NCBI GenBank assembly: GCA_033977065.1
Contig: JAXCHI010000006.1
Location: 1-48,532 of the forward strand
DNA from: Candidatus Algichlamydia australiensis
GTDB lineage: Bacteria > Chlamydiota > Chlamydiia > Chlamydiales > JAJFMI01
Direction: 5' to 3'
DNA: 48,532 nucleotides
Each line of letters starts with the position of its first letter. The stretch's first letter is position 1. The notes under the pieces are model-generated. The model was not told the DNA's origin. It saw only the letters and a list, made by a program, of their open reading frames with translations, and searched no databases. Made by a program: the position numbers and the translations under genes. This document shows positions 37,134-42,407 of this stretch, in pieces.

Positions 37134-37658
37134 ATGCATATTCAAAAGACTTTATTTCAGTCTTGGAGAAGCGCACTAGAGACCGAAACAAAAGGAAGTC
37201 AGATAGAACTGGAAAAACACTATGAAGAAGTTAGACTTCGTGCAACAGATTTTCTAAACGCGCCCTTGGTTAATGAAGCTCTTAAAAAAATAGCAAAATA
37301 TATCTTAGAAAAACATCCAGTATTAAAAAATCTACGTTATACTACTCCAAATCCTGAACAAGTAAAATATAATTCCTGGAACTGGCCTAAGGCGTCTTAT
37401 GAAGCTCTTGGAAGTAAGCTACCATCGCCTACATGCACTGGTGGGGACCAGGAATTTAAATTTCCTCACCTTGAATTTCTGAAAATAGCTGAAGAAGAAT
37501 TCACGTCAACTCCAGAACTCACTGAGGCAATGCAGAAAATAGCTAACTTTATCGCTAGCAAGATTCAACGTGCTATAGAGGTTGAGAAAGAGAAAAGAAA
37601 AAAAGAAGAGCCCTGGCGCACGAATTTTGAGGAAGAATTAGCCAGTCTTTACGAGTAA
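37134..37658 (+). CDS. Hypothetical protein with an internal duplication
   Basis: GGAGG Shine-Dalgarno; 174 aa; two related helical motifs. Confidence 0.7.
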   Translation: MHIQKTLFQSWRSALETETKGSQIELEKHYEEVRLRATDFLNAPLVNEALKKIAKYILEKHPVLKNLRYTTPNPEQVKYNSWNWPKASYEALGSKLPSPTCTGGDQEFKFPHLEFLKIAEEEFTSTPELTEAMQKIANFIASKIQRAIEVEKEKRKKEEPWRTNFEEELASLYE

Positions 37659-38487: not shown

Positions 38488-39107
38488 GAGAGCAGGTCGG
38501 AAAGATCGAGCAAAATATCTCGTAGCACTTCTAAAGGACGCTGGTCAGCGTTAAAGCGCGAGACAATTGCTTGCGGATAGCAGCTTAAAACCTCTTTTGT
38601 CTCCTTCTCATAGACTTCCATGCGCGTCCTAAGTACATCGCGATCTTTATCATCTAAGCGACGCTCAATCATACCGCGACGCAGTAGGCGCTGAATAAAG
38701 ACTTCAGGATCTTTGGACTCTAAAAGGATAATACGCTCTACTTTAAGAAATTGGTCAAGGTGCTCAGCCTGCCCTTTTGTGCGTGGGATTCCATCTAAGA
38801 GCAGAAGCTGCTCTTTGGGAAAGTAGCGGTTGGTACTAATCAATCCGTGGACAAAGTGATGCCAAATTTTTGAAGTTACTTCATCTGGAAGAAGGTGACC
38901 ACGTGAAGCGTACTTATGAAACAGTTTTCCGGCAGCCGATTCAGGTGATAATCCCCGAAAAATGTCTCCAGAGGAGAGGTGAAAATGGTTCCCTGCACTG
39001 CTTAAAAATTTGCCTTGCGTTCCCTTTCCAGAGCCAGGCGGTCCGAAAATTAGGACGGATCGAAAGGGCTCTTCATGGGAAGGAATCAACTCATCTGTAT
39101 CTATCAT
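38484..39107 (-). CDS. adk: Adenylate kinase (short LID)
   Basis: GPPGSGKGTQ, HLSSGDIFR, LLDGIPRT, RLDD. Confidence 0.85.
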   Translation of the reverse strand: MIDTDELIPSHEEPFRSVLIFGPPGSGKGTQGKFLSSAGNHFHLSSGDIFRGLSPESAAGKLFHKYASRGHLLPDEVTSKIWHHFVHGLISTNRYFPKEQLLLLDGIPRTKGQAEHLDQFLKVERIILLESKDPEVFIQRLLRRGMIERRLDDKDRDVLRTRMEVYEKETKEVLSCYPQAIVSRFNADQRPLEVLRDILLDLSDLLS

Positions 39108-39277
39108 ACTTAAAACCAGCTATTTGAGATAAACACTCTCTTACTTAATGATCATACCAAAAAACGGAATTTTTTCATTTCGAAGTCACTGAAAACCAGA
39201 CAATTGTATAAATTTAACAAAAAGTTTATTAAGTTAATATAATTATGATATAATTAAATTATAAATAAATAAGTATT

Positions 39278-40708
39278 ATGACAGAGTTCAAAGTTGGCAC
39301 ACTATCAGATGGGCGCATCCTCTTTGTAGAATTTACAGATAAAAGGGGAAAAGCTCTCCCCACGACTGCTGAAAAAACGCAACAGCTTGCTCAAGAGTTT
39401 TTCACAAATGAACGATTGGACCATTTTGAGTGGTCTCTCGACGAGAATGGTCGTTATCAGTCAGACTCAAAAAGTGAGATCGATTGCAAACTCCTTGCTG
39501 CAAGAAACGAAACTCCTGCTAAGGTCTCTTCAACAGATGAGGCTCCAGAAACACCGGATACTTCGGACGCAGATGAAAGCACTCCTCCCTCAACACCCGT
39601 TGCAAAAGAAGCAACAACCATTGATCTGCCTGCAAACCAATTTAACATAGACACGCTTACAATCGATGAAACAGTTGGAGATGGCAATTGCGCATTTCAT
39701 AGCATTCTAGGATCCCCAAACAGCGATGGAAAATATGAGTACCAACCTCTATCGGGAAAATCGATTCGTCAAGAGTTTTTAGATAGGTTTGAAGCCGTTG
39801 AGAAAAAGAAAAATGAACCTATCTCTGCTATACGGTGGGACTCTTTTGAAAAAGTACTCCATACCGAGTTTGAAAACTTCTTGCATAACTCACTCACAGA
39901 TGCGCGAAGCTCTAGCCAAGACCTCCTACTCGAAAAGAACAGAAAAGGATTAGAAAGAGCTCTTAAAGCTCACAACTCTAATCAGACGGAAAAGAACAAG
40001 CAGAAAGTTAACAAGGAGTTTAGAATTGCTTGGAAGCGCGCAGTTCTTGCACCGGAATACTACTTATCAGAAAATGAACTAGGTCTGCTTGGGAGGCTCT
40101 ACGACAAACCTCTCACTCTGGTTTACAAAAACCCGCATGATGATACTTTTTTGTTAAATGAGATCAACCCAGGTAGAGCAGATAACCAAATCTTCATTCA
40201 CCATAATGGAAATCATTATGAGCATTGCAACCGCACAGAAATTAAAAAAATTATTCCGCCAGAAAAATTTTATCCTCTAAACGAGCCTTGGAAAATCCCT
40301 CCACCAAAAGATGGCTCTGTAAGTGGAGATATACCTAAAAAGCCTGCATCAGCCCCCCCAACTCCAACTCAAGAGCGCAGTCTAGGTGAAATTTACAAGC
40401 GGAACAAAGCAGAAAAAAAGCATTATAAAGAGCTTCTAAAGGTTCACATTAAAAAAAATCCTAAACATCCTCTAGCTAAACTCTATCACGCTTTAGAAAA
40501 AGACTTATCCAATTACCACGGTGTCACCTCTCTACAAGGTTTTAGAACAACCTATGCCTCAACAAGACACTTTGTCAATGAAGAGGACAAGGTAGGACAC
40601 ATAGATGAGTTGGGAGTCCACTTACTTGATCGGTTGCTGACTCATGAAGAGAGTTTTGCAACCTCTGAAGAATTTTATAAATATATAGGAAGTTATGGCA
40701 GAATTTGA
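39278..40708 (+). CDS. Putative OTU-type cysteine protease/deubiquitinase effector
   Basis: VGDGNCAFHSI (Cys138) and IFIHHNGNHYE (His313), flanked by low-complexity linkers. Confidence 0.7.
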   Translation: MTEFKVGTLSDGRILFVEFTDKRGKALPTTAEKTQQLAQEFFTNERLDHFEWSLDENGRYQSDSKSEIDCKLLAARNETPAKVSSTDEAPETPDTSDADESTPPSTPVAKEATTIDLPANQFNIDTLTIDETVGDGNCAFHSILGSPNSDGKYEYQPLSGKSIRQEFLDRFEAVEKKKNEPISAIRWDSFEKVLHTEFENFLHNSLTDARSSSQDLLLEKNRKGLERALKAHNSNQTEKNKQKVNKEFRIAWKRAVLAPEYYLSENELGLLGRLYDKPLTLVYKNPHDDTFLLNEINPGRADNQIFIHHNGNHYEHCNRTEIKKIIPPEKFYPLNEPWKIPPPKDGSVSGDIPKKPASAPPTPTQERSLGEIYKRNKAEKKHYKELLKVHIKKNPKHPLAKLYHALEKDLSNYHGVTSLQGFRTTYASTRHFVNEEDKVGHIDELGVHLLDRLLTHEESFATSEEFYKYIGSYGRI

Positions 40709-41837
40709 AGTTGGCCGCCATGAAGGTCGTATAATTATAGCTGAATTTTTCGATGAGAACGGAAATTCACTTAATCCTGGTACTAAAGAGACAGATCCAC
40801 TTGCCAAACACGTATTTGGCGACCTCTCTTCTCTTATCACGCGTTGCCCAGACCTCAAGTCAAAGGGATCTTTTCGCGGAACAGATGAAGAGACGATTCG
40901 CAAATTTACTGAATACAAGCCTGCCGAAAAGAGCGCCTCTGCTCCTGCTGAGGCTAATGAGGCTGCTGAGAAACCAATAGAGAAAGATGAAAGCTCTGAA
41001 AACACTCCAAAAGTTCCTCAAGAGAATAAAACAGGAGAGAAAATTCCCCCACTTCCTAAAGAGGGAATCAACTTAGATATACCCTTCCTAGGAAGCGGTA
41101 CCACTTTGGATTTTTCTACTGATGTATCTCCAGATTTAGAGATGCCTGACCTTAGATGGGCGCCTGTTAAAAAAATAGAGCAACCAAGAAAAGAGATTCC
41201 AAAACCTCTTCCTTCTCACATGCCTCCGATACTCGATCCTGTAGCTCCTAGGGCAGAAGAGTATGCTAAAGAGCGGGATCCATCCCTACCCCCAAGTTAT
41301 ACACTCACATTCCCTGATATTGAGGAAATCCCCAACCGCTCATATGAGGAGACCGTTGAAGCAGTTAGAGAAATGATTCTAAGGACAGAGAATCAAAACT
41401 CTGATGATTTCATAGAGGAAGGAGTGCTCGAAAATCTATTCAGAGAGCAAAACCCAGTTTCTGCTGAATTAAGTGAAGAGAGCGATCTAGATATCGACTT
41501 CGACAGCTTAGCAGATGATCTTCTAGCAAGCATTGCATCAGATGAAATTGTCTACCCTGACTATGATGATGAAATTGGGGCAGAGGGATTTGAAAAATTA
41601 TTTCACGAAGAAGTAAAGCCTATCTCTACTCATTTTGAAGAACCAGTAGTGGAGGAAACAAAACCTGCGACTGAAAGGGAGCCTCAGCCAATATCTAAAG
41701 AAGAGTTGGATCTTACTGATGTAGATCTCTCACTTTATAACATGATGGCAGGAATTGAAGAACCAGAAGAGCTCATTCCGGGCGTGAACACCTACCCTCT
41801 AGATGAGCCTTCAATTTCGGAAATGCTCGATTTGTAA
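40695..41837 (+). CDS. Acidic, proline-rich hypothetical protein sharing its N-terminal module with the OTU-like protein
   Basis: MAEFEVGRHEGRIIIAEFFDENG versus MTEFKVGTLSDGRILFVEFTDKRG; overlaps the upstream stop by 14 nt. Confidence 0.7.
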   Translation: MAEFEVGRHEGRIIIAEFFDENGNSLNPGTKETDPLAKHVFGDLSSLITRCPDLKSKGSFRGTDEETIRKFTEYKPAEKSASAPAEANEAAEKPIEKDESSENTPKVPQENKTGEKIPPLPKEGINLDIPFLGSGTTLDFSTDVSPDLEMPDLRWAPVKKIEQPRKEIPKPLPSHMPPILDPVAPRAEEYAKERDPSLPPSYTLTFPDIEEIPNRSYEETVEAVREMILRTENQNSDDFIEEGVLENLFREQNPVSAELSEESDLDIDFDSLADDLLASIASDEIVYPDYDDEIGAEGFEKLFHEEVKPISTHFEEPVVEETKPATEREPQPISKEELDLTDVDLSLYNMMAGIEEPEELIPGVNTYPLDEPSISEMLDL

Positions 41838-41855
41838 TCGAACAAGTTGATCATT

Positions 41856-42407
41856 TTAATAATTCTGTGAGCTACCGCAACTACAGGAACTTTTGACATT
41901 GGGATTCGAAATTTTAAAGCCGGATCCCATCAATCCCTCTTGATAGTCAATTTCACAACCAAGCAATCTCTCAACCATCGTCTTGTCTACATGGATTTCA
42001 ATACCGTGTGATGTAAAAACTTGGTCCGTATCAAGCGATTTTTCTGAAAAATCGAGAACATACTCATAGCCGCTGCAGCCTCCTGGTTTGTCACCAAAGC
42101 GCAAAGCCCAATGCTCTTTGTTCTCTTCTGCTAACACTTTGCGAAACTTATTCGCTGCTGCCTCCGTCATGGTGATTGTTGAATCATCCAGTTTTCCTTC
42201 AAGGATGGCGTTGAGTGCGGTCAAAAGATCTTGCAGATCATCCAGGCTTTTGCCGTGGCTAAGCACGCCTGCCTCGAGAGTCTCCCATGTAGCAGCAGAA
42301 CAACCTACGCACTGCAGGCCGTGGCGTGTAAGCTCTTGCGCCAATTTTTGGCTTTTTTGCGGAAAGTTCTCAAAAATTTCCGCTATGGTCATCTCTTGCG
42401 TAATCAA
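41856..42407 (-). CDS. Fe-S cluster assembly A-type carrier (HesB/IscA) with N-terminal DUF1858-like domain
   Basis: GLQCVGC...WETLE N-domain, GGCSGYEY, EIDY, NPNVKSSCSCGSS. TTG at 42407 overlapping the ferredoxin stop is preferred. Confidence 0.85.
   Translation of the reverse strand: MITQEMTIAEIFENFPQKSQKLAQELTRHGLQCVGCSAATWETLEAGVLSHGKSLDDLQDLLTALNAILEGKLDDSTITMTEAAANKFRKVLAEENKEHWALRFGDKPGGCSGYEYVLDFSEKSLDTDQVFTSHGIEIHVDKTMVERLLGCEIDYQEGLMGSGFKISNPNVKSSCSCGSSQNY

Follow-up and report, generated by a model that had tools for sequence, protein, structure and literature searches.

A candidate two-gene effector operon with a duplicated 5' end and an OTU-fold protease in Candidatus Algichlamydia australiensis

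Results

Overview of the locus

Contig C6 of the Candidatus Algichlamydia australiensis genome (G000; 1.80 Mb, 7 contigs) was analyzed over its whole length of 48,532 bp, hereafter the window, and two co-oriented open reading frames (ORFs) that overlap by 14 nt, ORF1 and ORF2, were the subject of this study. Comparison of the two ORFs revealed similar 5' ends at both the protein and the DNA level, and ORF1 continues into a predicted OTU-fold cysteine protease domain. We read the pair as a candidate effector operon that came about when an N-terminus with a putative chaperone-binding role was copied and became linked to an OTU protease; its secretion and proteolytic activity are expected rather than observed properties, and we give this reading as a whole a probability of roughly one in two.

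According to this reading, the 5' end of a lineage-specific gene, comprising ~20 nt of leader DNA and roughly the first 45–90 codons, would have been duplicated. One copy of the encoded module would have been fused via a low-complexity linker to an OTU-fold cysteine protease and a helical C-terminal region (ORF1), and the other would head an acidic, disordered protein of the usual type of its family (ORF2). The module, a predicted hairpin and helix, would dock on a CesT-family class I chaperone, which would hand both proteins to the injectisome, and once delivered, ORF1 would act on host proteins by removing ubiquitin or a ubiquitin-like modifier from them. The features that this reading concerns are listed below (pLDDT, predicted local distance difference test); published work is cited throughout from parts of the respective texts.

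39259..39277, + strand: leader copy 1 (TTATAAATAAATAAGTATT), immediately upstream of the ATG of ORF1, aligning with the DNA before the ATGs of ORF2 and of the orthologue in a genome of the same genus (G001)
39278..40708, + strand: ORF1, 476 aa, with N-module, linker, OTU domain, Pro-rich linker and helical C-terminal region (ORF list, codon usage, homologues)
39278..39502, + strand: ORF1 N-module, residues 1–75, with a hairpin (3–8/14–20), a helix (31–41) and a weaker second half (sequence similarity, models)
39503..39613, + strand: ORF1 linker rich in S/T/E/P, residues 76–112, the probable fusion junction (homology limits; pLDDT <50)
39614..40240, + strand: ORF1 OTU-fold cysteine protease domain, residues 113–321 (VIA-align, Foldseek, conserved Cys/His)
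40241..40705, + strand: ORF1 Pro-rich linker and helical C-terminal region, residues 322–476 (no relatives among 1.84 billion representative proteins; pLDDT 37–57)
40675..40694, + strand: leader copy 2 (TTATAAATATATAGGAAGTT), preceding the ATG of ORF2 and within the last codons of ORF1 (DNA comparison)
40695..41837, + strand: ORF2, 380 aa, with N-module (residues 1–75, 40695–40919), linker and acidic Pro-rich tail (ORF list, codon usage)

Similarity of the N-termini and leader DNA

BLASTP comparison of ORF1 residues 1–44 with ORF2 residues 1–43 revealed 17 identical positions out of 44 (32.7 bits; E = 1e-5 for the pair), in agreement with a preliminary description of the locus that had noticed two overlapping, co-oriented ORFs with similar N-termini. 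When the first 60 aa of each ORF were searched with phmmer against the 18,866 six-frame ORFs of at least 40 aa in the whole genome, they matched only themselves and each other (E = 0.0045 and 0.0066). A tblastn search of the genome with the first 80 aa of each ORF (E ≤ 10) returned the query itself and missed the partner, and a hidden Markov model (HMM) of the two sequences found no third copy of the module in the genome (next best E = 0.61). By these comparisons, the N-terminal similarity is weak though specific. The preliminary description had also put the length of the shared module at ~70 aa; the module is real, but its robust part spans only ~44 aa, followed by weak in-register similarity (4/29 identities over ORF1 residues 46–78). 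Beyond the shared 5' part BLASTP yielded chance-level segments only, and both proteins pass into low-complexity linkers, rich in S/T/E/P in ORF1 (residues 81–115) and in A/E/K/P/S in ORF2 (residues 77–120), as anticipated for a linker followed by divergence.

The DNA similarity continues ~20 nt upstream of both ATGs, with the leader consensus TTATAAATA[A/T]ATA[A/G]G..TTATG. Around the start codons, the repeat D4 (39276–39298 and 40693–40715) is 83% identical, and a second repeat in the linker DNA (39537–39555 and 40957–40975) is 79% identical, with a spacing of 1420 nt compared with 1417 nt at the starts. This in-register linker repeat suggests that the copied piece extended to about codon 93. 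Since the similarity also takes in the leader DNA, the 5' end was duplicated, and we conclude that ORF1 and ORF2 arose via partial tandem duplication of the 5' end. The two genes thereby combine a homologous N-terminus and homologous upstream DNA with unrelated C-termini, the pattern by which terminal reassortment is recognized.

In each of the three DNA copies of module genes, the third being that of G001 (L013, about 1098–1115, − strand), the ATG is immediately preceded by the AT-rich leader TTATAA[AT]TA[AT]AT. It could represent a translation-initiation or regulatory element, or mere AT-rich composition. A further resemblance, I-P-x(3,4)-[FT]-Y-P-L-[ND]-E-P, was found in ORF1 residues 321–337 and ORF2 residues 356–372, with 8 of 17 positions matching. 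We rejected this common YPL[ND]EP stretch near both C-termini as a real link: its E value of 0.43 is not significant, and it could be a short linear motif or chance.

OTU domain of ORF1

A Pfam scan of ORF1 gave no match at E ≤ 1, and a word-indexed database search returned ORF1 itself only. Besides ORF1, an exhaustive HMMER search of the 1.84 billion representatives revealed 17 further proteins at E ≤ 1e-3 (18 in total), every one of which matches inside residues 81–336, and neither the N-module nor residues 340–476 found a match. Three of the 17 remote relatives give a Pfam OTU score of 17–21 bits, below the cut-off of 23.3, and among the 17, DUF6119 occurs in two, ankyrin repeats in one, and a kinase domain with DUF4116 and Sel1 in one. 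A profile of the clade searched against PDB sequences reached only E = 0.5–0.85, with at least 9 of the 11 matches being OTU entries.

The structure of ORF1 predicted by AlphaFold2 from 16 sequences, with a pLDDT of 85–95 in the core of the OTU domain, was used as input to the fold searches. VIA-align against 48,161 chains placed OTU domains at all of ranks 1–11 (Z 8.8–9.7; root-mean-square deviation (rmsd) 3.0–4.0; 123–147 residues aligned), led by OTUD3 4bou (Z 9.7, rmsd 3.3, 128 aligned) and OTUD1 (Z 9.6), and including nairovirus OTUs, wMelOTU and yeast Otu1 (Z 8.8–9.4). In Foldseek, 31 of the 32 listed rows were named OTU or otubain (probability 0.54–1.0). The putative catalytic residues lie in conserved motifs. 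In D135-G-N-C138 (Cys codon 39689–39691), Cys is present in 14/14 and D/E in 15/15 covering alignment rows, with a helix at 138–144 in the model; in H313-Y314-E315 (His codon 40214–40216), His and the following aromatic residue are each present in 16/16 rows, with a strand at 314–321. ORF1 matches in this respect the C...H-aromatic-acid arrangement of OTUs (PMC7396840). A helical insert of ~80 residues (184–262) lies between the Cys and His loops and aligns only to generic helical bundles.

Because the Pfam OTU score was not reached, ORF1 is filed as an OTU by its predicted fold and its motifs, in a clade beyond the reach of the Pfam model; LotA was likewise missed by a profile search (PMC7396840). 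The OTU-like protease proposed in one of the two ORFs was thus supported by fold and Cys/His motifs. Of 401 genomes sampled across the order, 41 (from 26 of 216 genera) contain the clade, usually within open frames 1000–2800 aa long. ORF1 is a short representative of this patchily distributed chlamydial clade of OTUs, with isopeptidase activity presumed. A 1046-aa DUF6119-OTU protein of G001 is a relative of the OTU part of ORF1 and lacks the module. The genome under study has a second OTU gene (C3:6140–6781; L004 1099..1746), encoding 215 aa that are 51% identical to the C-terminus of the intact 1046-aa protein of G001. It too is without the module, lacks the catalytic Cys loop, contains one TAA within the profile match and is probably a dead remnant.

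Two observations concern the relatives themselves. The closest ones, P0002 (G001:C16) and P0010, also contain DUF6119, for which no function is known, in a recurring DUF6119-OTU architecture. The alignment rows P0004, P0005, P0012, P0013 and P0018, all remote relatives, have a long hydrophobic stretch preceding the OTU domain, which looks, by eye only, like the two-lobed membrane anchor of chlamydial inclusion-membrane proteins.

Distribution and history of the module

The distribution of the module was analyzed in the same-genus genome G001 (76% complete), in a genome of the same family (G002) and in 401 genomes of the order. In G001, the same slot holds a single gene, X, in the order iscA-like, X, adk, xerD, and its 258-aa product P0019 bears the module, matching ORF2 at E = 0.01 and ORF1 at E = 0.009 over 111 aa. 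The pair had been described as inserted between adk and iscA; the flanks are right, but since G001 has a gene of the same family in this slot, the pair is not an insertion, and the adk/iscA slot of the module gene is ancestral in the genus.

When a profile built from the three modules was searched against 5.8 billion proteins, five carriers were found, namely ORF1, ORF2, P0019, P0020 (261 aa, from a metagenome-assembled genome labelled 'Chlamydiales bacterium') and P0022 (254 aa), all from one narrow chlamydial lineage. In the three proteins of ~255 aa, the module is accompanied by a linker, by a PW..FQ..FMQ.K.WL.PD motif and by an acidic tail. A modular family with swappable payloads, as first proposed, was not supported: the family is very small, three of its five proteins are these orthologues, and ORF1 alone has an enzyme domain. 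Between P0019 and P0022, identity is 63–67% in the module, 58% in the motif, 27% in the linker and 33% in the tail, and since it is highest in the module, the module is under the strongest constraint within the family. Residues F19, D21, L37, A38 and F42 are invariant in all five module proteins.

The modules of ORF1 and ORF2 (17/44 identical) are closer to each other than to that of X (10/41 and 13/41, respectively), which fits a duplication in this lineage. Homology to the OTU relatives without the module starts near ORF1 residue 99, and the resemblance to the module family runs as far as about residue 119, which places the join within the low-complexity linker. Both ORFs are candidates for the original copy, ORF2 retaining the enzyme-less acidic architecture and ORF1 the promoter-proximal position.

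In the survey of the order, the three-sequence profile matched 23 of the 401 genomes at E ≤ 0.1 per genome, compared with ~40 expected by chance, and the best match outside G000 and G001 had an E value of 0.005. The 12 best weak matches were re-scored and taken as noise, as only two of them lie near an ORF start (a 284-aa ORF without other likeness and a 63-aa antisense ORF). A search for related loci with three close rows gave only the record of G001 itself among genome contigs and none among metagenome contigs. The suggested HMM search thus produced no third member in the genome and no credible one outside the genus in the 401 sampled genomes of the order.

In G002, the slot holds an unrelated 280-aa gene. 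The gene divergent from adk differs between the more distant relatives G002 (L014 520..1362, − strand) and G029 (L015 2179..3366, + strand), and these two genes share an N-proximal NGKTYKV (12/28 identical, E = 0.006). They were rejected as module carriers (hhalign probability 0.1–0.2). It is possible that the position beside adk houses a gene that is old and evolves very fast.

The shared N-terminus might be a relic of the tandem duplication without a common function, the module now decaying. An identity of 39% over 44 aa that fades to 4/29 over ORF1 residues 46–78, the failure of tblastn to detect the match and the lack of a third member in the genome are all consistent with such decay. Elsewhere in the family, however, the module is the best-conserved part (63–67% compared with 27–33% for linker and tail); the five invariant residues have been kept in all five proteins and fall inside the interface predicted below; and a similar leader has been kept at both starts. 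We consider a functionless relic unlikely.

Type III secretion genes and a chaperone docking model

Genes for SctV/FHIPEP (725.8 bits), a HrpJ/CopN-like protein (64 bits) and a CesT chaperone (59.4 bits) are clustered on contig C4, and two further CesT genes elsewhere bring the total in the genome to three. The premise that this chlamydia has a system for type III secretion (T3SS) was therefore confirmed at the level of SctV, the CopN/HrpJ gatekeeper and the chaperones, and the organism is described as an obligate intracellular chlamydia with a complete T3SS (PMC11317633).

Models of the module showed the hairpin 3–8/14–20 and the helix 31–41 with a pLDDT of about 60–69 for residues 1–43 and <50 for the remainder. 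Fold searches with the module, a check that had been proposed at the outset, were uninformative (Foldseek best E = 0.44; VIA best Z 3.4; input pLDDT 51). The ESM Atlas gave no usable match for ORF2 or for ORF1 residues 1–80, and NCBIfam gave nothing for ORF1, ORF2 or P0019.

A complex was then modelled from two copies of the CesT protein with the best score in the genome (C2:318718–319257, 86.8 bits; residues 1–140) and ORF1 residues 1–85 with a five-row alignment; the other two CesT genes lie at C4:130456–130809 and C3:640631–640852. The chaperone–module ipSAE was 0.85 (0.84–0.86 in three runs), compared with 0.18 for the best of three controls. The mark attained by the chaperone–module complex is reached by 116 of 157 solved complexes and by 2 of 215 mismatched pairs. 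The runs agreed on at least 49% of contacts, with a partner pLDDT of at least 50. The predicted interface comprises ORF1 residues 2–7, 13, 15–21, 27–43 and 50–52, and includes F19, D21, L37, A38 and F42. The module would most likely, on the strength of this model, be the docking site for the CesT-family class I chaperone of the genome; of the targeting or chaperone-binding role suggested earlier, docking on CesT is supported by a complex model with controls and by that model only. The nearest solved relative of the chaperone, ShcA, is distant (E = 0.003). The C2 chaperone may be the orthologue of Slc1; the searches identify it as CesT (86.8 bits), with ShcA as the nearest solved relative.

The proteins might alternatively not be secreted, the OTU acting inside the bacterium, for example in a bacterial ubiquitin-like or defence pathway, and the N-module serving as a regulatory or oligomerisation domain. 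Secretion of ORF1 and ORF2 is an expectation; in the closest OTU relatives, P0002 and P0010, the OTU is joined to DUF6119, which has no known link to eukaryotic hosts; and the models show the module as a small fold, not as a disordered signal. Set against this are the intracellular lifestyle with a T3SS (PMC11317633), the prevalence of host-dependent bacteria and predicted secretion signals among characterized bacterial OTUs (PMC7396840), the ankyrin repeats or eukaryote-type kinase domain in other members of the OTU clade, and a chaperone docking model that passed its controls. An intrabacterial role is, on this balance, quite improbable.

ORF2 and the C7 tract

ORF2 is acidic (isoelectric point (pI) 4.23; 90 D+E versus 36 K+R; 39 prolines) and predicted to be disordered (ESM Atlas model, pLDDT 0.39; predicted template modelling score (pTM) 0.13), in line with the acidic disordered tail originally assigned to it. 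No homologue of its tail was found in 41 relatives or by word-indexed search.

The C-terminal region of ORF1 contains a polymorphic homopolymer:

40353..40359, + strand: C7 homopolymer within ORF1, C7/C8 polymorphic in one public run (contigs of run X2)

In run X2, the contig with the C7 reference allele had a depth of 264.8 and the contig with the C8 (+1 C) allele a depth of 212.8. The C8 allele would end ORF1 at 370 aa, near 40389, with loss of the helical C-terminal region and of the overlap with ORF2. The genome contains 42 G/C runs of at least 7, about the number estimated from base composition, and we would not call programmed phase variation at the tract on these data.

ORF2, or the C-terminal part of ORF1, could in principle be a decaying or non-functional frame, with the OTU gene alone mattering. 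ORF2 indeed has no homologue past its first ~46 residues, is predicted to be disordered and is listed among the unannotated unique genes in tables of the genome paper, and the C7/C8 polymorphism shortens the C-terminal region of ORF1 in part of one population. The in-frame codon signal of ORF2 is nevertheless the strongest at the locus (+0.44 across all 380 codons, versus −0.23 off-frame), there is an open frame of 1143 nt, and the 255-aa relatives, also acidic and linker-rich, are conserved between lineages, so that decay is very unlikely.

Gene order and expression signals

On one side, the pair is flanked by adk (PF00406, E = 1.2e-25) and a xerD-like recombinase gene, divergent from ORF1, and on the other by an Fe-S_biosyn/DUF1858 (iscA-like) gene that is convergent to ORF1 and ORF2. 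The divergent spacer between adk and ORF1 is AT-rich (GC 0.32–0.33) and contains a promoter-like site, as expected from the AT-rich promoter region noted upstream:

39214..39243, + strand: sigma-70-like promoter site TTAACA-18-TATAAT, matching at 11 of 12 positions, the best site within 38900–42100

The same scan of 38900–42100 found no + strand promoter-like site before ORF2, and no + strand terminator with a T-run was found between ORF1 and ORF2. ORF1 and ORF2 probably form one operon; we infer their co-transcription.

The codon-usage log-ratio per codon was +0.28 in frame for ORF1 and +0.44 for ORF2, compared with +0.35 for adk and +0.25 for the iscA-like gene; it was negative in both other frames of ORF1 and −0.23 off-frame in ORF2. 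Because this in-frame codon usage resembles that of the housekeeping neighbours, ORF1 and ORF2 were taken as real genes. Their GC contents (0.41 and 0.43) and codon usage are those of the genome itself, which makes recent horizontal transfer unlikely.

Two public runs of the same study labelled 'dinoflagellate metagenome', X1 and X2, may be the source data of the assembly. One X1 contig spans 39100–41900 with 0 differences, and X2 covers all 30 bins; an assembly artefact is accordingly unlikely. Beside xerD, the window contains a 174-aa ORF (37134–37658, + strand) with no Pfam or NCBIfam family match; in G001 an unrelated ORF follows xerD, and the 174-aa ORF is absent from that place.

Comparison with known systems

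ChlaOTU of C. pneumoniae and C. caviae carries an OTU domain and is an early effector of type III secretion (Furtado 2013, cited in PMC7396840 and PMC4209131). Like ORF1, it is a chlamydial OTU-type cysteine protease from T3SS-bearing obligate intracellular bacteria, with host ubiquitin removal as the expected role. It has no recognisable His motif according to parts of PMC7396840, whereas ORF1 has a clear H-Y-E, a comparison made by description and not by sequence; in addition, ORF1 is short (476 aa) and has the lineage-specific N-module, unlike ChlaOTU.

Residues 113–321 of ORF1 have the same predicted fold as OTUD3 4bou, OTUD1 4bop, nairovirus vOTUs, wMelOTU 6w9o, SnOTU 8cmr and Ceg23/LotB 6ks5 (Z 9.7–7.4, rmsd 3.0–4.0, 123–169 aligned), with the Cys loop preceding the His loop in both ORF1 and the solved OTUs, although sequence identity is only 12–20%. 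SnOTU from Simkania, of the same chlamydial family (PMC11317633, PMC10643670), scored below the OTUD-type and viral OTUs (Z 7.8). Ceg23/LotB, of the Legionella Lot class, which is marked by an extended helical insertion between the Cys and His loops, aligned the most residues (169) but with Z 7.4, compared with 9.2–9.7 for OTUD3 and vOTU; in ORF1, a predicted helical insert occupies residues 184–262.

Salmonella effectors of the SifA/SseJ/SspH type have a common conserved N-terminal translocation domain. Among type III effectors, shared N-termini with unrelated C-termini are known as terminal reassortment (Stavrinides, Ma and Guttman 2006, cited in PMC7406222), and the present pair likewise has a homologous N-terminal secretion or chaperone-binding region, as predicted, here together with its leader, joined to unrelated C-terminal domains. 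In contrast to the usual case, donor and recipient are adjacent in one predicted operon, the five-member family is confined to one narrow lineage, and secretion is an expectation. The pair was initially put forward as an undescribed system; by this comparison it is not a new kind of system, the route being already known (PMC7406222), and the joint action on host ubiquitin or autophagy suggested with it drew no support from the present results.

Slc1 (CT043) of C. trachomatis binds the first 100–132 aa of Tarp, CT694 and CT695, the last two of which are possibly co-transcribed neighbours (PMC3576375). The likeness lies in a CesT-type class I chaperone that serves several effectors, including those of neighbouring genes, although here docking is a model only. 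The authors found no common motif among the Slc1 binding regions (PMC3576375), whereas ORF1 and ORF2 have a recognisable shared module.

Both coding sequences (39278–40708 and 40695–41837) are 'hypothetical protein' in annotation tables of the genome paper. Its main text, as available in part (PMC11317633), does not mention OTU or ubiquitin; 'ubiquitin' occurs 3 times in the supplements, in two passages not at ORF1 or ORF2, and an effector list there could label the genes otherwise. No description of the pair was found in the literature on chlamydial OTUs/ChlaOTU and Algichlamydia.

Discussion

Several points weigh against reading the pair as a chaperone-dependent effector operon with a protease. 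The classical T3S signal is disordered, and a folded hairpin from residue 3 is unlike it. The models of the module are of low confidence (pLDDT 51 for the module alone, about 60–69 for residues 1–43). Chaperone–effector complexes are a solved class, and the docking score may partly reflect likeness to them; its controls were folded natural proteins rather than amphipathic peptides, and it covers one of three chaperones and the module of ORF1 alone. On the enzyme side, the OTU profile (PF02338) had no hit, the best Foldseek E value for the OTU domain was only 3.8e-3, and after the His-aromatic pair E occurs in 6/16 rows and Ser in the rest, which leaves the third triad residue uncertain. No relation could be detected between the tail of ORF2 and those of the 255-aa members, the shared family architecture being our interpretation, and no public RNA run is listed as holding the locus, so that expression and co-transcription are predictions.

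A bolder version, which we offer as speculative and rather doubtful, takes the module of roughly 45–75 aa with its conserved leader as a cassette that can be moved between genes and docks on a conserved class I chaperone of chlamydiae, and the locus as the birth of an effector caught in progress, with slippage at the C7 tract making a phase-variable pair. The cassette of a resident disordered effector would have been copied before an OTU domain within the same operon, and slippage in some members of the population would switch off the C-terminal domain of ORF1 together with the translational overlap between ORF1 and ORF2.

Effectors of chlamydiae are difficult to spot because secretion signals and chaperone-binding regions rarely share sequence. 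If the candidate effector operon is read correctly, its module, which can be recognised by sequence and has a chaperone partner open to testing, would help in a small way with effector discovery and validation in environmental chlamydiae, and the pair would be a clean example of how a new enzyme effector gets assembled. With a narrow distribution and predicted functions, the general importance is modest; the locus adds an unannotated, putative OTU-type protease to a symbiont of a coral-associated dinoflagellate.

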